Shown one piece after another: positions 34,265 through 64,000 of a stretch of 64,000 nucleotides of DNA; the stretch's first letter is position 1, and every line of letters begins with the position of its first letter. The stretch lies in NCBI GenBank assembly GCA_965222375.1, contig CBDCTZ010000016.1, forward strand, positions 2,016,001-2,080,000. Reading direction: 5' to 3'. This stretch comes from Polyangiaceae bacterium. GTDB lineage: Bacteria > Myxococcota_A > Polyangia > Polyangiales > Polyangiaceae. The notes beneath the pieces were generated by a model. It was not told the origin of the DNA. It saw nothing but the letters and a program-made list of their open reading frames with translations, and ran no database searches. The position numbers were made by a program, and so were the translations under genes.

Positions 34265-34726
34265 TGCAGCGTCAATGCACTCGGCGTGCGGCCGCACGAG
34301 ATTAGTGCCGCAATGTCGCACCATCGCCACGACCCCAAAACCAGGACGGAGTCGAGAGGGACTTTCAGACGTTTCAGGGCGCTGGTACTGTCGGTTAACA
34401 GCCAAGCCACCCAATTCTTGGTCGCATCGTTGATCTTCGGCGAGCCTGATGGAGTCAGAGCGTCTCTAGGTACGCGACCAACGCTCGGCGGTCTTCACTG
34501 GCCGGCGTTCCTGGAGCGTGCTGAGGAGCAGCGCGGTCTGCCTCGCTTCGTAACGGCCGAGTTTGAGGAGTACCTGCGCTGCGGTTTGCTCGAGCATGGG
34601 TGTCTGCGCCTTGCCTGTCGCGACGGCGGCTATTCCGAGTTGGTGGCCTTCAGCTGCAACCGACGTGGCTTCTGTCCATCTTGCCTCGGACGCCGGATGA
34701 AGGACGCTTCATGATGCATCACCTCG

Positions 34727-36811
34727 CTATGTCTTTGGAATTGTTAGGTTGAGTTGGTTCGGTGCAGGTCCAGTGTTCTTGCCTTGTCGGTATGCACGTG
34801 CTCGGGTGGTGATGCGCTCGGCTGCGTCCGAGCCCACGACATCGCTGCGAGCGAAGATCCAGGGTCCATTCGGTAGCGGATGCTGCGAGGGAATTTCGTT
34901 TCGCTGCGCTGCGCGTCGTAGCGTCTTCGGATCGACCTGAACAAGAGCTGCAGCTTCTTCGCAGGTCAGCCATTCGCCCCGATCACGCTGCTTCGAGCAC
35001 GGTTCGATCTTGTATCGATGGCGTACAGACGCGACCAGCGCCCGGCTGTAGTGGCCTCCCGTGGGCGTGCGCACACCAGCGCGCCCAAGCCATCGGGCGA
35101 TCTGCATGTCGCCCATGACGCGCGCGAGCACGCGCACGGCTTCGACGACTTCGGCAGCTGTGGTGTTGCGACGTTGGCCAGTGCGACGCTTGGGGACACG
35201 TAACTCGGTGTGCACCCCTCCCTTCCAGTGCACGACGAGGAGGATCTCGGAGCGCTCGGTGTCCACGTCAACCCAAACCTGCTCCACCACAGCGCGCGTG
35301 ATGCGCTTCTTCGTGGATGGCTTGGTCGTAGGCGCTGTCCACACGCGTTCCACGTCGCGTGCGAGCTCGAGATATCGCCCGATGTCGGGTGGGCGCGAGA
35401 CCTCTGCCCGCGTTGCCGTGGCCTCGCCGATGCGCTGCTCGACTGTGCGTACGGCTTCGAGGGCAGTATTCCATCGGCGCTCGAGTTCGACGGCCACGGT
35501 GCGGTTTTCAGGCTCGACAGCATCGTATTGACGTTCAGCGCGTTGAGCCTCGTAGCGCGCCTGTTGCAGCTGCAGTTCCAGCGCAGCCACGGCATCATCA
35601 CGTTCCGCCACGTCCTGGTCCCATGCAACGTGGGCAGCTTCGATCGCACCCGGCCGCACGACAGCGAGCACCCGCTCGACGATCTGCGCGTCCACGTCGG
35701 TTGCGCTGAACGAGATGCATCGCGGTCCACCGGAGCGGTCGTGGTCATCGTTGCATGTGTAGCGAGCAATACCTTGCTTTGTCCCGCTATAACTCACGCC
35801 CAGGCGGCGGCCGCAACGGCGACACCAAACGAGGCCGCCCAGGAGTGCAGCGCCACCCTTGGGTGCTCCTGCTGCTCCTCGCCTCTGTTCGTTCTTTGAC
35901 AACATTTGTGACGCACGCTCGAACTGCTCCCAGCTGATATATGCCTCGTGACGGTCCCGAAGCAACACCGACCACTGGTCTCGAGGCACTCGCGTAGCGG
36001 CACGTCGGGGCTGTCCGTCCACGATACGGGTGTGGACTTTGGTCCGTCCGTACACGTAGGCGCCCGCATAAATCGGATTCTTCAGTGTCCGATAGACGAA
36101 GTCGGCCGTCGGCTTCTTCCAGACAACCTCGCCACGCCGATTGCGGTTCACGGGTGTCTGAATGCCGCTCTCGCGCATCCATATCACCACCTGTCGCGCA
36201 CTACCCAGTTCGAAGAACTTGGAGAAGACTAGCTCGATGGCCTGCCGGATACGTGCGTCCGGCGCCTTCTCGAGGCGTCCATCACCTCCCACTCGGTAAC
36301 CCACCGGAACGCCCGCAACCAATTCCCCGCGCTGCGCTTTCTGCCTTTGTGCCTCCAATCCACGCATGCGTAGCAGGTCGAGCTCGTACTCGTTGAGGCT
36401 GCCCTTGAGCCCCAAGAGCAAACGGTCGTTGCTATGTCGCGGCGCATACACCGTGTCGTGATCCACCAGCAGCGTGTCGACCACGCGACAGATCTCGATG
36501 AGTTGCTGCCACTCCCGACTGTTGCGCGCGAAACGCGAAACTTCCCGGGCGGCCACGGCACCCACCTGACCAAGGGAAACGTCAGCGACCAGCCGGCGGA
36601 AACCTCTGCGCTCGACGGACCCAGCTGCCGATTTGCCCAGGTCCTCATCGATCACGTCGACCTCGCGAAACCCCAACTCGCGCAATCGGTCACGCATCGC
36701 GTATTGCTGCCGCTGGCTTTCGCGGTTGTTCATCAGCTGTTGCTGGGACGACTGGCGTACGTACAGGATCGCGCGTCGCGCCACGTGGTGTTCGCCGATC
36801 TTCTCATTCAT
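34727..36811 (-). CDS. Large serine recombinase (resolvase, recombinase, Zn-ribbon, C-terminal HTH)
   Basis: AILYVRQSS catalytic Ser, EVSRFARN, NPIYAG, CRRCGRRL, WLTCEEAAALVQV. Confidence 0.95.
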   Translation of the reverse strand: MNEKIGEHHVARRAILYVRQSSQQQLMNNRESQRQQYAMRDRLRELGFREVDVIDEDLGKSAAGSVERRGFRRLVADVSLGQVGAVAAREVSRFARNSREWQQLIEICRVVDTLLVDHDTVYAPRHSNDRLLLGLKGSLNEYELDLLRMRGLEAQRQKAQRGELVAGVPVGYRVGGDGRLEKAPDARIRQAIELVFSKFFELGSARQVVIWMRESGIQTPVNRNRRGEVVWKKPTADFVYRTLKNPIYAGAYVYGRTKVHTRIVDGQPRRAATRVPRDQWSVLLRDRHEAYISWEQFERASQMLSKNEQRRGAAGAPKGGAALLGGLVWCRRCGRRLGVSYSGTKQGIARYTCNDDHDRSGGPRCISFSATDVDAQIVERVLAVVRPGAIEAAHVAWDQDVAERDDAVAALELQLQQARYEAQRAERQYDAVEPENRTVAVELERRWNTALEAVRTVEQRIGEATATRAEVSRPPDIGRYLELARDVERVWTAPTTKPSTKKRITRAVVEQVWVDVDTERSEILLVVHWKGGVHTELRVPKRRTGQRRNTTAAEVVEAVRVLARVMGDMQIARWLGRAGVRTPTGGHYSRALVASVRHRYKIEPCSKQRDRGEWLTCEEAAALVQVDPKTLRRAAQRNEIPSQHPLPNGPWIFARSDVVGSDAAERITTRARAYRQGKNTGPAPNQLNLTIPKT

Positions 36812-36986
36812 GATGACCTCCCTTTCGTCTTCCGAGTTGTCGTCGGCTGTGTTGTCGGAGCGCTTCGGCGAGCAGCGTGATGACCTCCTTGCGCGACGCT
36901 TCGGGAAGTGCCTTCCACCTCGGAAGCGGCGGGCCGGGTTGTGGCAGAACCATTTGAACCCCGCGTCTTCGTCTGCGCTTCTTCAT
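36804..36986 (-). CDS. 60-aa accessory ORF upstream of the LSR
   Basis: WKALPEASRKEVITLLAEAL; overlaps the LSR start; same in copy 2. Confidence 0.5.
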   Translation of the reverse strand: MKKRRRRRGVQMVLPQPGPPLPRWKALPEASRKEVITLLAEALRQHSRRQLGRRKGGHHE

Positions 36987-37295
36987 GCGCCGTCAGTGCC
37001 CCCGACTCGTGCCCCATGTCCAGCGCTCGGGACTCCTCCAGCAGGCAGCGGAGCTCTTCGAGCGCGCTCATCGACACGCGCGGTTCAGCTTCGACCCGCA
37101 TCCCCGCGCAGGACACCGGGTCCAGCATCCACGCAGGGATGCTCACGAGTCGGTCCGGCGCGCCCGGGCCTACCAAACAGCGGAGCATGCCGAAAGCGCC
37201 ACGACAAACCACCGCGACGGCCTGACCATGCAACGGGTGCCACGCGTAAACGACGGTACGCACATCGGTCTTGTGCGCATCATGTTGTATTGCTG
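36808..37295 (-). CDS. Accessory ORF (DUF5372/Y4bD-like) lacking an RBS-ATG start in the integrated state
   Basis: YAWHPLHGQ..IPAWMLD..SMSALEELRCLL. Confidence 0.55.
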
Positions 37296-39297
37296 ATGGC
37301 TGACACGGCTGTGCATCTGGAAGCGCGCGTACTGCCCCGCGTTCCCATCCGTCACTGGATCTGCTCACTGCCCTGGGGACTGCGAGCGCTACTCGGCTAT
37401 GATCGCAAGCTCTGCTCCGAGGTGGTCAGCGCGCTCATGACCGAGGTGCGTCGCTCACTCCGTTCGCGCGCCAAACGACAGTTTGGGCTCGCCAGCGTAC
37501 GCAACCTGCTAACCGGTGCGCTGGTCGCGGTACAGCGCACGGACAGTGCCCTCCGACTAAACGTACACACCCACGCTCTGGTGCTCGATGGCGTGTACGC
37601 GCACCAGGGCGACGACCCTCGCGAGACCGAAGGGAACCCCGGGGCTCCGCTCGAGTTCCTCGGGCTCGACGCGCCGACCCACGCCGACATTGCCGAGGTC
37701 GCGTCACGCATCGAGAAGATCCTGAAAACGTGCGTTCCATGCGACGAAAGGCCATCTCATCGGTCAATGTCGTCGGGGAACCAGAGGCATCGACGACACC
37801 AAATACCTCGAACCCTTCTTCAACCGCGCTGATAGCTGGTGGGGCGAGGCGCGTAGGACAATCGAACTGTGAAAACGCGGGTGGGGAGGGCCGAGGCGGG
37901 TGGCAAAGAGCGGCGACGATAGCACCGGGAGCGGAACGGCTGGGTGGTTTGCAGGCGAAGGGGGGTCTTTTGCTGAGATGTCGGCGAGCCCAAGACGCAG
38001 CTCCGCCGAAGCGGCCTGCGTGTGGCGCTCAACCCCGTCTGGCCGGGAACTGGAGCACCAGTTGCTCGGGCACGGGCAGCTGGGCCCGAGGGCTCGGAGG
38101 AGCTCGCGGGCCAAGACCGTGCTCAGCGAGCAGCCGCGTGATGTCGACGCGGGTGGTCGCGATGTCAGCCCAGCGCAGCGGTCCGTTACAGCGTGGGCAG
38201 TGCTCCAGGTCCGCCCTGAAGACGTGCGCGAGGAGCCAAGCCCAGCGCTTGCGTGATGGTGGAGCGTCGTCCAACTCGTCAAGCAACTCTAACTGATCGC
38301 CGGGAGCGGGAGGAGGCTTGTCTGCGGCGTGGTCGGCGTGGTCGGCGGCCGGATTGGGGACGACTCGTTCCCGGTGCGACGAATGACTAGAGAGCACGCC
38401 GAAGTAGCGCAACATGTGGAAGCGCGGGGGCGGTACTGCCGAGACCATACGTGCAATCAGGTCGTGGGGCTCGAGAACGAGCGCGCGCGTGCCGTCCCGC
38501 CACGGCTTGTTGAAGCTGAGCTCGAGCTTGCCGTCTGTGCGTCGCTCGAGGCGGTCCTGGGCGACAGGCGGTCGCGTGATGTACTTGCAAAGTCGCTCGA
38601 CGCGGCGGCGGTCCCGCCCGTCCACGAGCTGCGCGGCGTAGATGTTGATGCCGCGCACTTCGGCGATGGGCTGGTCGGTGATGTCGGAGGCGCGAGGGCG
38701 CGCGGGGGGCTCTTGGGGGAGCAGCAATCGCAGCAGAGGCTTGCCGGCGCGCTGCCCGCTGAGGGAAATACCTTGCGCAGCAGCGGCATAGCAGCCTGCA
38801 AGAGCAGGCTCATCCAGGCAGAGCAGCGGCGGCTCGGCGTCGCCGAACTCAGGGTCGAGGCTGCGGCCGTGGGCGTGCAGGATGCGCTCGACGCGTACGG
38901 CCGTGCGTGCGGCAACCTCCGCGATGTCCGCGTGGGTTGGCGCGTCAAGCTCAAGGAACTCGAGTGGAGCGTGAGGGTCGTCTCCTTGGTGCCAGTGCAC
39001 GCCGTCGAGCACGAGTGCGTGAAAATGCACGTTTAGTCGGAGAGCACTGTCCGTGCGCTGCACCGCGACCAGCGCACCGGTCAGCAGGTTGCGCACACTG
39101 GCGAACCCGAACTGTCGTTTGGCGCGCCAACGGAGCGAGCGACGCACCTCGGTCATGAGTGCACTGACCACCTCGGAGCAGAGCTTGCGGTCATACCCCA
39201 GCAGCGCTCGCAGTCCCCAGGGCAATGAGCAGATCCAGTGACGGATGGGCACGCTTGGCAGCACCCGCGTTTCGAGATGCACAGCAGTATCGGCCAT

Positions 39298-39785
39298 CAG
39301 CAATACAACATGATGCGCACAAGACCGGTGTGCGTACCGTCGTTTACGCGTGGCACCCGTTGCATGGTCAGGCCGTCGCGGTGGTTTGTCGTGGCGCTTT
39401 CGGCATGCTCCGCTGTTTGGTAGGCCCGGGCGCGCCGGACCGACTCGTGAGCATCCCTGCGTGGATGCTGGACCCGGTGTCCTGCGCGGGGATGCGGGTC
39501 GAAGCTGAACCGCGCGTGTCGATGAGCGCGCTCGAAGAGCTCCGCTGCCTGCTGGAGGAGTCCCGAGCGCTGGACATGGGGCACGAGTCGGGGGCACTGA
39601 CGGCGCATGAAGAAGCGCAGACGAAGACGCGGGGTTCAAATGGTTCTGCCACAACCCGGCCCGCCGCTTCCGAGGTGGAAGGCACTTCCCGAAGCGTCGC
39701 GCAAGGAGGTCATCACGCTGCTCGCCGAAGCGCTCCGACAACACAGCCGACGACAACTCGGAAGACGAAAGGGAGGTCATCATGA
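39298..39785 (+). CDS. Accessory ORF (DUF5372/Y4bD-like), start predicted to be supplied on circularisation
   Basis: Same as copy 1; its TGA overlaps the LSR ATG (ATGA). Confidence 0.55.
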
Positions 39786-39789
39786 ATGA
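39607..39789 (+). CDS. 60-aa accessory ORF
   Basis: Identical to copy 1. Confidence 0.5.
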   Translation: MKKRRRRRGVQMVLPQPGPPLPRWKALPEASRKEVITLLAEALRQHSRRQLGRRKGGHHE

Positions 39790-41866
39790 GAAGATCGGCG
39801 AACACCACGTGGCGCGACGCGCGATCCTGTACGTACGCCAGTCGTCCCAGCAACAGCTGATGAACAACCGCGAAAGCCAGCGGCAGCAATACGCGATGCG
39901 TGACCGATTGCGCGAGTTGGGGTTTCGCGAGGTCGACGTGATCGATGAGGACCTGGGCAAATCGGCAGCTGGGTCCGTCGAGCGCAGAGGTTTCCGCCGG
40001 CTGGTCGCTGACGTTTCCCTTGGTCAGGTGGGTGCCGTGGCCGCCCGGGAAGTTTCGCGTTTCGCGCGCAACAGTCGGGAGTGGCAGCAACTCATCGAGA
40101 TCTGTCGCGTGGTCGACACGCTGCTGGTGGATCACGACACGGTGTATGCGCCGCGACATAGCAACGACCGTTTGCTCTTGGGGCTCAAGGGCAGCCTCAA
40201 CGAGTACGAGCTCGACCTGCTACGCATGCGTGGATTGGAGGCACAAAGGCAGAAAGCGCAGCGCGGGGAATTGGTTGCGGGCGTTCCGGTGGGTTACCGA
40301 GTGGGAGGTGATGGACGCCTCGAGAAGGCGCCGGACGCACGTATCCGGCAGGCCATCGAGCTAGTCTTCTCCAAGTTCTTCGAACTGGGTAGTGCGCGAC
40401 AGGTGGTGATATGGATGCGCGAGAGCGGCATTCAGACACCCGTGAACCGCAATCGGCGTGGCGAGGTTGTCTGGAAGAAGCCGACGGCCGACTTCGTCTA
40501 TCGGACACTGAAGAATCCGATTTATGCGGGCGCCTACGTGTACGGACGGACCAAAGTCCACACCCGTATCGTGGACGGACAGCCCCGACGTGCCGCTACG
40601 CGAGTGCCTCGAGACCAGTGGTCGGTGTTGCTTCGGGACCGTCACGAGGCATATATCAGCTGGGAGCAGTTCGAGCGTGCGTCACAAATGTTGTCAAAGA
40701 ACGAACAGAGGCGAGGAGCAGCAGGAGCACCCAAGGGTGGCGCTGCACTCCTGGGCGGCCTCGTTTGGTGTCGCCGTTGCGGCCGCCGCCTGGGCGTGAG
40801 TTATAGCGGGACAAAGCAAGGTATTGCTCGCTACACATGCAACGATGACCACGACCGCTCCGGTGGACCGCGATGCATCTCGTTCAGCGCAACCGACGTG
40901 GACGCGCAGATCGTCGAGCGGGTGCTCGCTGTCGTGCGGCCGGGTGCGATCGAAGCTGCCCACGTTGCATGGGACCAGGACGTGGCGGAACGTGATGATG
41001 CCGTGGCTGCGCTGGAACTGCAGCTGCAACAGGCGCGCTACGAGGCTCAACGCGCTGAACGTCAATACGATGCTGTCGAGCCTGAAAACCGCACCGTGGC
41101 CGTCGAACTCGAGCGCCGATGGAATACTGCCCTCGAAGCCGTACGCACAGTCGAGCAGCGCATCGGCGAGGCCACGGCAACGCGGGCAGAGGTCTCGCGC
41201 CCACCCGACATCGGGCGATATCTCGAGCTCGCACGCGACGTGGAACGCGTGTGGACAGCGCCTACGACCAAGCCATCCACGAAGAAACGCATCACGCGCG
41301 CTGTGGTGGAGCAGGTTTGGGTTGACGTGGACACCGAGCGCTCCGAGATCCTCCTCGTCGTGCACTGGAAGGGAGGGGTGCACACCGAGTTACGTGTCCC
41401 CAAGCGTCGCACTGGCCAACGTCGCAACACCACAGCTGCCGAAGTCGTCGAAGCCGTGCGCGTGCTCGCGCGCGTCATGGGCGACATGCAGATCGCCCGA
41501 TGGCTTGGGCGCGCTGGTGTGCGCACGCCCACGGGAGGCCACTACAGCCGGGCGCTGGTCGCGTCTGTACGCCATCGATACAAGATCGAACCGTGCTCGA
41601 AGCAGCGTGATCGGGGCGAATGGCTGACCTGCGAAGAAGCTGCAGCTCTTGTTCAGGTCGATCCGAAGACGCTACGACGCGCAGCGCAGCGAAACGAAAT
41701 TCCCTCGCAGCATCCGCTACCGAATGGACCCTGGATCTTCGCTCGCAGCGATGTCGTGGGCTCGGACGCAGCCGAGCGCATCACCACCCGAGCACGTGCA
41801 TACCGACAAGGCAAGAACACTGGACCTGCACCGAACCAACTCAACCTAACAATTCCAAAGACATAG
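39782..41866 (+). CDS. Large serine recombinase
   Basis: Protein identical to copy 1; GGGAGG RBS. Confidence 0.95.
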   Translation: MNEKIGEHHVARRAILYVRQSSQQQLMNNRESQRQQYAMRDRLRELGFREVDVIDEDLGKSAAGSVERRGFRRLVADVSLGQVGAVAAREVSRFARNSREWQQLIEICRVVDTLLVDHDTVYAPRHSNDRLLLGLKGSLNEYELDLLRMRGLEAQRQKAQRGELVAGVPVGYRVGGDGRLEKAPDARIRQAIELVFSKFFELGSARQVVIWMRESGIQTPVNRNRRGEVVWKKPTADFVYRTLKNPIYAGAYVYGRTKVHTRIVDGQPRRAATRVPRDQWSVLLRDRHEAYISWEQFERASQMLSKNEQRRGAAGAPKGGAALLGGLVWCRRCGRRLGVSYSGTKQGIARYTCNDDHDRSGGPRCISFSATDVDAQIVERVLAVVRPGAIEAAHVAWDQDVAERDDAVAALELQLQQARYEAQRAERQYDAVEPENRTVAVELERRWNTALEAVRTVEQRIGEATATRAEVSRPPDIGRYLELARDVERVWTAPTTKPSTKKRITRAVVEQVWVDVDTERSEILLVVHWKGGVHTELRVPKRRTGQRRNTTAAEVVEAVRVLARVMGDMQIARWLGRAGVRTPTGGHYSRALVASVRHRYKIEPCSKQRDRGEWLTCEEAAALVQVDPKTLRRAAQRNEIPSQHPLPNGPWIFARSDVVGSDAAERITTRARAYRQGKNTGPAPNQLNLTIPKT

Positions 41867-42207
41867 CGAGGTGATGCATCATGAAGCGTCCTTCATGCGA
41901 CGCCCGAGGCAAGATGGACAAAAGCCGCGTCGCTTACAGCTGAAGGCGACCAGCTCAGAGTAACCGCAGTCGCGACAAGCAAGGCGCAAGCAACCATGCT
42001 CGAGCAAGCCGCAGCGCAGGTACTCCTCAAACTCGGCAGTCACGAAGCGAGGCAGACCGCCGTGCTCCTCCGCGCGCTCGAGGAACGCCGGCCAGTGCTT
42101 CTGCACCGTCTGGTAGAGCACGGTGGTTTCAGGGCGATGACGGAACCGGGAATGCTCGGGCTCGCGGCGAGGGTGTGCGTGCGCTGGGTGACCCACGCCA
42201 TGGCGTT

Positions 42208-62235: not shown

Positions 62236-64000
62236 ATGAAGGACGCTTCATGATGCATCACCTCGCTATGTCTTTGGAATTGTTAGGTTGAGTTGGTTCG
62301 GTGCAGGTCCAGTGTTCTTGCCTTGTCGGTATGCACGTGCTCGGGTGGTGATGCGCTCGGCTGCGTCCGAGCCCACGACATCGCTGCGAGCGAAGATCCA
62401 GGGTCCATTCGGTAGCGGATGCTGCGAGGGAATTTCGTTTCGCTGCGCTGCGCGTCGTAGCGTCTTCGGATCGACCTGAACAAGAGCTGCAGCTTCTTCG
62501 CAGGTCAGCCATTCGCCCCGATCACGCTGCTTCGAGCACGGTTCGATCTTGTATCGATGGCGTACAGACGCGACCAGCGCCCGGCTGTAGTGGCCTCCCG
62601 TGGGCGTGCGCACACCAGCGCGCCCAAGCCATCGGGCGATCTGCATGTCGCCCATGACGCGCGCGAGCACGCGCACGGCTTCGACGACTTCGGCAGCTGT
62701 GGTGTTGCGACGTTGGCCAGTGCGACGCTTGGGGACACGTAACTCGGTGTGCACCCCTCCCTTCCAGTGCACGACGAGGAGGATCTCGGAGCGCTCGGTG
62801 TCCACGTCAACCCAAACCTGCTCCACCACAGCGCGCGTGATGCGTTTCTTCGTGGATGGCTTGGTCGTAGGCGCTGTCCACACGCGTTCCACGTCGCGTG
62901 CGAGCTCGAGATATCGCCCGATGTCGGGTGGGCGCGAGACCTCTGCCCGCGTTGCCGTGGCCTCGCCGATGCGCTGCTCGACTGTGCGTACGGCTTCGAG
63001 GGCAGTATTCCATCGGCGCTCGAGTTCGACGGCCACGGTGCGGTTTTCAGGCTCGACAGCATCGTATTGACGTTCAGCGCGTTGAGCCTCGTAGCGCGCC
63101 TGTTGCAGCTGCAGTTCCAGCGCAGCCACGGCATCATCACGTTCCGCCACGTCCTGGTCCCATGCAACGTGGGCAGCTTCGATCGCACCCGGCCGCACGA
63201 CAGCGAGCACCCGCTCGACGATCTGCGCGTCCACGTCGGTTGCGCTGAACGAGATGCATCGCGGTCCACCGGAGCGGTCGTGGTCATCGTTGCATGTGTA
63301 GCGAGCAATACCTTGCTTTGTCCCGCTATAACTCACGCCCAGGCGGCGGCCGCAACGGCGACACCAAACGAGGCCGCCCAGGAGTGCAGCGCCACCCTTG
63401 GGTGCTCCTGCTGCTCCTCGCCTCTGTTCGTTCTTTGACAACATTTGTGACGCACGCTCGAACTGCTCCCAGCTGATATATGCCTCGTGACGGTCCCGAA
63501 GCAACACCGACCACTGGTCTCGAGGCACTCGCGTAGCGGCACGTCGGGGCTGTCCGTCCACGATACGGGTGTGGACTTTGGTCCGTCCGTACACGTAGGC
63601 GCCCGCATAAATCGGATTCTTCAGTGTCCGATAGACGAAGTCGGCCGTCGGCTTCTTCCAGACAACCTCGCCACGCCGATTGCGGTTCACGGGTGTCTGA
63701 ATGCCGCTCTCGCGCATCCATATCACCACCTGTCGCGCACTACCCAGTTCGAAGAACTTGGAGAAGACTAGCTCGATGGCCTGCCGGATACGTGCGTCCG
63801 GCGCCTTCTCGAGGCGTCCATCACCTCCCACTCGGTAACCCACCGGAACGCCCGCAACCAATTCCCCGCGCTGCGCTTTCTGCCTTTGTGCCTCCAATCC
63901 ACGCATGCGTAGCAGGTCGAGCTCGTACTCGTTGAGGCTGCCCTTGAGCCCCAAGAGCAAACGGTCGTTGCTATGTCGCGGCGCATACACCGTGTCGTGA
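62236..64000 (-). mobile_element. LSR element copy 3 (runs off window)
   Basis: ATG core at 62236-62238 followed by AAGGACGCTTCATGATGC, as in copy 1. Confidence 0.92.
62266..64000 (-). CDS. Large serine recombinase (5' end outside window)
   Basis: Protein identical to copies 1 and 2 over the visible part. Confidence 0.95.
   Translation of the reverse strand, partial: HDTVYAPRHSNDRLLLGLKGSLNEYELDLLRMRGLEAQRQKAQRGELVAGVPVGYRVGGDGRLEKAPDARIRQAIELVFSKFFELGSARQVVIWMRESGIQTPVNRNRRGEVVWKKPTADFVYRTLKNPIYAGAYVYGRTKVHTRIVDGQPRRAATRVPRDQWSVLLRDRHEAYISWEQFERASQMLSKNEQRRGAAGAPKGGAALLGGLVWCRRCGRRLGVSYSGTKQGIARYTCNDDHDRSGGPRCISFSATDVDAQIVERVLAVVRPGAIEAAHVAWDQDVAERDDAVAALELQLQQARYEAQRAERQYDAVEPENRTVAVELERRWNTALEAVRTVEQRIGEATATRAEVSRPPDIGRYLELARDVERVWTAPTTKPSTKKRITRAVVEQVWVDVDTERSEILLVVHWKGGVHTELRVPKRRTGQRRNTTAAEVVEAVRVLARVMGDMQIARWLGRAGVRTPTGGHYSRALVASVRHRYKIEPCSKQRDRGEWLTCEEAAALVQVDPKTLRRAAQRNEIPSQHPLPNGPWIFARSDVVGSDAAERITTRARAYRQGKNTGPAPNQLNLTIPKT

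Follow-up and report, generated by a model that had tools for sequence, protein, structure and literature searches.

The stretch of Polyangiaceae bacterium DNA analyzed here (64,000 nucleotides of contig CBDCTZ010000016.1, referred to as the window) raises the question of how a mobile element could make use of a gene whose translation start lies at one of its ends and whose coding body lies at the other. The element is 2602 bp long, is inserted at 39295-41896 antisense inside an IS91-family transposase gene, and encodes a large serine recombinase (LSR) together with two small open reading frames (ORFs), orfA and orfB. Its limits (39295 and 41896) and the 3-nt core CAT shared by both ends are exact, as they were defined by near-identical copies and empty sites. 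We consider it probable that the attachment crossover falls inside orfA, and that the full-length OrfA protein serves as a read-out of the excised state, binding the LSR and setting the direction of recombination.

A gene divided between the two ends of the element

The LSR gene stops with TAG (41864-41866), which is followed by GAGGTG (41868-41873), a spacer of 7 nt, an ATG (41881-41883) and AAG CGT CCT TCA T up to position 41896. In the integrated copy, this ATG opens an ORF of only 20 codons that runs into the flank. At the opposite end, the orfA frame begins at 39297 and reads S-A-I-Q-H-D-A-H-K onward until a TGA codon (39783-39785) that overlaps the ATG of the LSR gene (39782). Joining the ends through CAT keeps the frame, the five leader codons and the 162 codons of the body adding up to 167 aa. 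The original prediction, made from this DNA alone, had proposed a ribosome-binding site (RBS) and ATG behind the LSR stop that join a start-less ORF at the left end, as well as a 167-aa in-frame product whose stop overlaps the LSR start, and both were borne out by direct reading of the coordinates and ends. Its further statement that orfA lacks an RBS-ATG when integrated stood in part: there is no own start at the element end, but an internal GTG is present at 39330 and an ATG at 39225 in the flank. Since the same layout recurs in relatives, the split appears to be more than chance.

In Logan contigs of four sequencing runs (none recorded as RNA) the element appears as its own contig of 2610-2613 nt; joined ends were not found in these assembled contigs, which drop rare forms and are therefore uninformative on circles and on expression. 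A scan of positions 39100-42100 for sigma-70-like promoters gave 0 sites vs. 0.3 expected, a result that is uninformative in GC-rich DNA and is confined to the integrated sequence and to this one promoter type.

Conservation of the junction in related elements

Relatives were collected by scanning one genome per species with a profile of the narrower OrfA alignment (a scan with the close alignment gave no loci), resulting in 459 relatives, from which 80 loci were kept; orfA could be located in 74 of these. At the protein level, 1131 cluster representatives match the OrfA family at E ≤ 0.001, and their homology mostly starts at residues 3-6 of the orfA body, regardless of the called N-terminus.

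In the clade that targets rve-type transposase genes (rve clade), similarity between left ends nearly always begins at a Cys/Tyr codon followed by T-[TSK]-R, and the sequence upstream of it is unrelated. The junction was assessed in the 34 rve-clade loci that have a full-length LSR followed by 35 nt or more, leaving out 21 loci with broken or missing recombinase genes. An automatic rule, which required a start codon ahead of the core, in frame with it and not cut off by a stop, and placed the core by a fixed anchor, found the arrangement in 31 of the 34 loci, and inspection by eye in 32, with an in-frame ATG/GTG exactly 14 nt before the central TA. The leader in this clade reads M-K-[RQH]-x-C and the left end starts with the same TTGTA core; in the two loci that failed (L062 and L064) the left ends have decayed as well. 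A core finder based on the longest common substring was dropped due to spurious cores, and a looser regular-expression count (30/55 loci) was set aside, its misses being mostly broken recombinase genes or effects of the Shine-Dalgarno filter.

A second clade lies antisense in IS66-family transposase genes. The split is present in all three of its complete plasmid elements (L113, L115 and L119), where a purine-rich motif, an ATG and four codons follow the LSR stop in frame with a left end that reads P-V-H-[SC]-A-H. It is also kept in an IS91-targeting relative with 44% OrfA identity (L158), whose right end is almost identical to that of the window element, and two further loci with different cores join in frame (L155, IS66 target; L159, target unknown). 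Judging from these alignments, the split persists through at least four attachment site (att) types. A junction frame lost in homologues had been named beforehand as the outcome that would count against the proposal; what was found instead is a frame and start that are kept (32/34 rve-clade loci, 3/3 IS66 elements and the single cases) despite different att cores and targets, which supports a gene that is complete only across joined ends.

Some gene calls point in the same direction. Those of the metagenomic sequences P0144 and P0128, and probably P0039, start with an M-K-x-x-C leader joined directly to the body, a hint that joined DNA may exist; the contigs behind the clusters of short-leader calls are only 763-14299 nt long and uninformative on the joined state. 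In the NCBI annotation of eight plasmid loci (L112-L119) a 59-aa orfB-like protein and, where intact, the recombinase are listed and orfA is never listed whole, as would be expected if annotation pipelines find no start; these tables omit pseudogenes.

The need of orfA for an outside start was evaluated with 54 distinct left ends of the rve clade. A start codon occurs in ≤ 6% of the sequences at any of the 17 codons between the core and an invariant Tyr, and third codon positions vary most. The ratio of nonsynonymous to synonymous change (pN/pS) is 0.51 in codons 10-17, a stretch that a typical 25-bp att arm would not reach, vs. 0.42-0.56 in the core domain. By these measures, coding-type constraint on orfA extends up to the element end in relatives.

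OrfA, OrfB and the recombinase

The LSR carries the catalytic domain (PF00239, E 2.5e-20, residues 14-163), with R19, Q20, S21 and S22 invariant in 29 relatives, as well as PF07508 (E 1.2e-19) and PF13408 (E 4.4e-07), both above their cut-offs; the nearest solved chains are SPbeta integrase entries (E 1e-9).

The conserved part of OrfA comprises approximately 100 residues, modeled with a mean predicted local distance difference test (pLDDT) of 84.4 as a small SH3/KOW-like barrel followed by a long helix. The DUF5372 label attached to it in the original prediction proved weak: PF17342 reaches 14.2 bits vs. a gathering cut-off of 25 (E 0.047), and 6/137 OrfA relatives match the family at E ≤ 0.001. 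Language-model features returned DUF5372 clusters in 28/30 hits (score 0.92), and OrfA would be at most a distant relative of this family, on which a literature search found no papers. OrfA has no sequence relative in the PDB, Foldseek returned nothing at E ≤ 0.001, and VIA-align retrieved only generic SH3/KOW-like barrels (best Z 5.9, root mean square deviation 2.0, 47 residues aligned); across these three comparisons no sequence or fold relation to a solved directionality factor was found.

A complex of OrfA with the LSR was predicted with an interface score (ipSAE) of 0.69 vs. 0.00 for the best of three controls. This mark is reached by 116/157 solved complexes and by 2/215 mismatched pairs, counts that apply only approximately, as the prediction was run with our own alignments. 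The prediction runs agree in at least 81% of contacts, with a partner pLDDT of at least 66. Predicted contacts involve LSR residues 330-335, 380-414, 460-490 and 500-536 and OrfA residues 19-22, 51-52 and 60-89; on the LSR side they would correspond to the zinc ribbon, the following region where such enzymes carry the coiled coil, and the next segment. Binding of OrfA to the zinc-ribbon/coiled-coil region is therefore a supported prediction. Published recombination directionality factors (RDFs) bind, or are predicted to bind, the DBD2-CC (zinc-ribbon/coiled-coil) junction, and predictions of this kind have been used to find RDFs (PMC12286644). The earlier guess that OrfA acts as a state-dependent directionality or integration factor has thereby gained in-silico support.

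OrfB is conserved, with counterparts in L032-L119, but has no Pfam family, and its Atlas search gave only unnamed clusters (0.84). Where orfB overlaps the orfA tail, pN/pS is 0.68 in the orfB frame vs. 1.26 in the orfA frame, so selection in the overlap acts on the former and not on the latter. The OrfB motif W..LP.E.R is found in 52/74 loci and the protein reads overall roughly QLDLF...W..LP.E.R...LLA.LL. Fusions of OrfA and OrfB in a single frame (P0118, P0122, P0085 and L026) suggest that the two may act together.

Proposed mechanism and alternative explanations

We propose a small site-specific mobile element that would be moved by its LSR, with a crossover just after the fifth codon of the accessory gene orfA. 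In the integrated state, the Shine-Dalgarno sequence and the five leader codons with their ATG would be parked at the right end, the ATG 14 nt behind the stop of the LSR gene, and the remainder of orfA 2.6 kb away at the left end. Excision by the LSR as a circle would join the ends and place a complete orfA 14 nt downstream of the LSR gene, and full-length OrfA would be made only from this circle, by translation across the junction. OrfA would then bind the zinc-ribbon/coiled-coil region of the LSR and bias the direction of recombination. In the version that we prefer, it would favour re-integration of the circle, whether by itself or by counteracting a further factor (OrfB, for instance), and integration would destroy orfA again. 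The bias towards integration is favoured because a cofactor that appears only after excision would serve the next step and be destroyed by it.

Several points weigh against this scenario. We infer excision to a circle from what is known of serine recombinases, the junction-spanning translation and the sign of the effect are inferred as well, and the binding is a model prediction. Factors of this kind usually promote excision, a role that clashes with a cofactor produced only once excision has taken place. Within the OrfA body, the N-terminal 10 residues are modeled with low confidence and lie outside the predicted interface, and the N-terminus may thus not matter for binding. The start ATG is at the same time the inner part of a mirrored 8-nt motif and the leader codons belong to the inner att arm; codons 2-9 show little synonymous change (pS 0.37), and conservation of the leader could reflect binding by the recombinase. 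The window copy also offers alternative starts (GTG 39330 and the flank ATG 39225), from which a shorter or a fused product might be made in the integrated state. Finally, a same-genus relative contains two copies (L150 and L151) with 100% identity across 2621 nt and unrelated surroundings. No dinucleotide is common to their ends, so that the crossover could not be placed, and under one reading one of them joins in frame and the other does not. For L152 and L153, duplicates including their flanks, ends could not be defined.

The rival that survives best reverses the logic: OrfA, produced by the first circle to be excised, would be a conventional factor that promotes excision and blocks integration, acting in trans on other integrated copies in an excision burst or preventing immediate re-insertion at the site just left. 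The predicted contact region does match that of known excision factors, and five genomic copies would be available to a factor acting in trans. However, the first excision and the later re-integration are left unexplained, and the direction of the effect follows from nothing computed; we regard this explanation as unlikely.

A second rival takes the split to be a by-product of the attachment site, with ATG and frame kept as recombinase-binding arms and OrfA either translated from an internal start (GTG 39330) in both states or not needed at full length. The 8-mers GCATCATG and CATGATGC are located at -19 to -12 on both sides of the central AT, and the att mirror symmetry extends to 12/30 positions vs. 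4/30 when the centre is shifted by one base. According to PMC12286644, the zinc-ribbon domain is expected to bind at that very position. DNA recognition and coding thus constrain the same bases, and leader conservation alone proves little. The depressed synonymous change in codons 2-9 and the low-confidence N-terminal 10 residues fit this explanation too, as does the choice of gene callers to start P0003 and P0004 at the internal codon. On the other hand, the rve clade has no conserved internal start, its mirrored arm carries CTG and not ATG at the place of the start codon, where only ATG/GTG occur in 32/34 loci, start and frame persist while cores and arms differ across the att types, and codons 10-17, outside the arm, evolve like coding sequence. 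Taken together, we judge a by-product to be improbable.

The weakest rival supposes that the integrated copy already yields OrfA, as a fusion protein whose translation begins in the flank, on the antisense strand of the target gene (the shared landing site making the flank predictable). It can draw on a frame that stays open for 24 codons into the window's left flank, up to ATG 39225, and on long N-terminal extensions in 101/152 called relatives, but is very improbable given that the 39225 start is a GTG in the other copy, that sequences upstream of the core are unrelated between loci, that among 68 loci with a visible upstream stop 23 have no in-frame flank start, 29 only GTG/TTG and 16 an ATG, that stops occur 2-5 codons upstream in L045, L052, L113 and L115, and that GC-rich DNA is expected to have long open frames on the antisense strand anyway.

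Beyond the excision-dependent assembly of orfA, we tentatively put forward a broader interpretation, which is more doubtful than the core proposal. The element would be a self-contained topological switch, in which two or three genes sense integration and flip their own LSR from one reaction to the other without input from the host or from regulators, and the family would represent an undescribed, widespread group of hyperparasites homing antisense into conserved codons of rve-type (IS3/IS481), IS66 and IS91 transposase genes and inactivating them.

Copies, target genes and orientation

The genome (10.56 Mb, 16 contigs) harbors five full-length copies of the element with ~ 100% identity. Ends of four copies were compared by exact-string anchors and are identical; the fifth is the inverted copy of the window, which was covered by the repeat alignment. 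Copies 1 and 2 of the window (Table 1) differ at 2/2602 positions within the unit and at 40/325 and 25/201 positions (~ 12%) in the adjoining arms, and are enclosed by a 3128-nt inverted repeat. Every genomic copy occupies the same site in a different IS91-type gene, with flanks that are 100, 95, 91, and 83% alike. The interrupted gene of the window has the features of the IS91 family, namely a Zn-binding N-terminal domain and a Y2 transposase domain, both on the minus strand. Six loci in related genomes represent empty sites, where the IS91-type gene reads left flank, CAT and right flank without a gap. Insertion is precise, repeated and site-specific; the precise insertions, the 3-nt shared core and the empty sites are consistent with attP × attB integration with a 2-nt crossover.

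Table 1 Positions of the element, its genes and att features, and the interrupted transposase gene in the window
Feature	Position	Strand	Remarks
LSR mini-element, copy 2	39295..41896	+	carries orfA, orfB and the LSR gene; defined by repeat comparison, genomic copies and empty sites
Copy 1 of the element	34697..37298	-	inverted; in a second IS91-type gene, 12% diverged
Third copy of the element	62236..64000	-	continues past the window end; contig positions 2078236-2080837
attL, left CAT core	39295..39297	+	at both ends of all copies; single in empty sites
attR, right CAT core	41894..41896	+	at both ends of all copies; single in empty sites
orfA body, 162 codons, no own start at the element end	39297..39785	+	N-terminal ~ 100 aa form the conserved domain; tail merely overlaps orfB
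Mirror motif CATGATGC, P' arm	39309..39316	+	encodes the H-D-A stretch of orfA
Internal in-frame GTG, codon 12 of the orfA body	39330..39332	+	rival start; the corresponding codon is the called start of P0003 and P0004
orfB, 60 aa, +1 frame	39607..39789	+	own Shine-Dalgarno and ATG, overlaps the orfA tail; 59-aa counterpart annotated in plasmid relatives
Large serine recombinase, 694 aa	39782..41866	+	Resolvase, Recombinase, Zn_ribbon_recom and HTH_17 domains
Shine-Dalgarno-like GAGGTG	41868..41873	+	7 nt 5' of the ATG; purine-rich counterparts in relatives
Outer symmetric att motif GCATCATG, P arm	41876..41883	+	includes the start ATG
Detached 5' end of orfA, ATG and four codons (M-K-R-P-S) plus one base	41881..41896	+	ends in the core; homologous leaders in relatives
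IS91-family transposase gene, 5' part (Zn_Tnp_IS91, PF14319)	41897..42196	-	domain match
Same IS91-family transposase gene, 3' part (Y2_Tnp, PF04986)	38029..39294	-	domain match

Of the six Zn_Tnp_IS91 matches in the genome, five break off at the insertion point (profile position 69), and the sixth is a degenerate, uninterrupted copy; this occupancy (5/6) makes the element a parasite of insertion sequences. The two IS91 genes at 34496-37623 and 38970-42097, both occupied, stand tail to tail in a 3.1-kb inverted repeat, 1346 nt apart, and as facing genes offer homologous or site-specific recombination a substrate for inversion. A further peculiarity concerns the LSR itself, whose C-terminus carries an excisionase/MerR-like HTH_17 domain (41621-41755, residues 614-658, E 4.9e-06, right at the Pfam cut-off); such a domain is unusual in enzymes of this class.

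In the rve clade, 10/11 right flanks are rve-type integrase-core transposase genes, cut at approximately position 50-52 of the rve_3 profile; the eleventh (L035) is a POR/DUF6537 oxidoreductase-type gene with a left core TCGTA and may be an off-target insertion. Target sites are found in conserved codons, at a W..x-Y-N motif in rve-type genes, near R-P-I..G-R-K-N in IS66 genes and at R-R-M-A in IS91 genes. Two metagenome contigs (L029 and L030) have the same upstream sequence but differ by a stretch of 54 nt, located precisely where the left end of an IS66-targeting element joins its flank. In addition, attL can read TTATA and attR TTGTA in four rve-clade loci (L034, L047, L048 and L098).

The element is antisense to its target in every locus where the target gene was read. 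In studied serine integrases the central dinucleotide sets the polarity of integration. Here it is apparently palindromic, AT in the window element (39296-39297 / 41895-41896) and TA in the rve clade, and consequently something else may fix the orientation of the element.

Comparison with known systems

Tn4451/Tn4453 of Clostridium, moved by the large resolvase TnpX, reportedly have a circular form in which the joined ends create a promoter for the recombinase gene. The window element resembles them as a small LSR element whose joined ends would create an expression signal that is absent from the integrated copy; unlike in Tn4451/Tn4453, where the junction supplies a promoter, here the RBS, the start and five codons are detached and the reading frame itself would be assembled. 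Circle-junction promoters are also known from IS3, IS30 and IS110/IS1111, in which the free circle is highly expressed and insertion switches expression off. These elements use DDE or DEDD transposases and split a promoter, whereas an ORF is split here.

The promoters Pcirc of ICEclc and P3'end of ICEKp1 lie at one end of their element and act on a gene at the opposite end only once the element has circularised (PMC13023037). In contrast to the window element, ICEclc and ICEKp1 are large conjugative elements with tyrosine integrases, transcriptional control of the integrase and no split coding sequence. The SSV-type 'suicidal' integrases of archaeal viruses and plasmids, which PMC8371274 calls exclusive to archaea, have their own gene fragmented by integration and whole when free. 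They share with our element a recombination site within one of the element's own genes; the difference is that a tyrosine recombinase gene is split in the SSV type, whereas here it is an accessory gene, and the bacterial LSR ORF is intact when integrated. Mycobacteriophage BPs and its relatives have attP within the repressor gene, and the integrated and free states give different products (PMC4557955). In BPs the 3' end of the repressor is exchanged and both forms are translated, whereas here the 5' end with the translation signals is removed.

OrfA resembles the RDFs of large serine integrases in being small, without a family, and predicted to make contact with the zinc ribbon and with the base of the coiled coil. 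It differs in an expression logic tied to the excised state and in the lack of a detectable relation to solved factors in the comparisons given above.

In none of the compared systems does a bacterial LSR element carry an accessory gene whose translation start is detached from the rest of its coding sequence. A literature search, which covered few subscription journals, found no description of LSR elements in transposase genes or of a start codon supplied across a circle junction. We conclude that the division of orfA is real and conserved, and that the elements sharing it form a family that has apparently not been described.

Implications

Circularisation-dependent promoters and genes with swapped tails were known before. 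In a bacterial LSR element, integration that physically takes away the translation start of a gene would switch this gene on and off more cleanly, and such an arrangement appears to be unpublished. Should OrfA indeed set the direction of recombination, OrfA and the LSR would together form a minimal autonomous directionality module, which would be of interest for genome engineering based on serine integrases, a field short of cognate cofactors. The split start also explains why annotation pipelines miss orfA, and its recognition brings to light a large family of elements, with 1131 protein cluster representatives and 459 relatives in genomes, whose members disrupt genes for transposases specifically.

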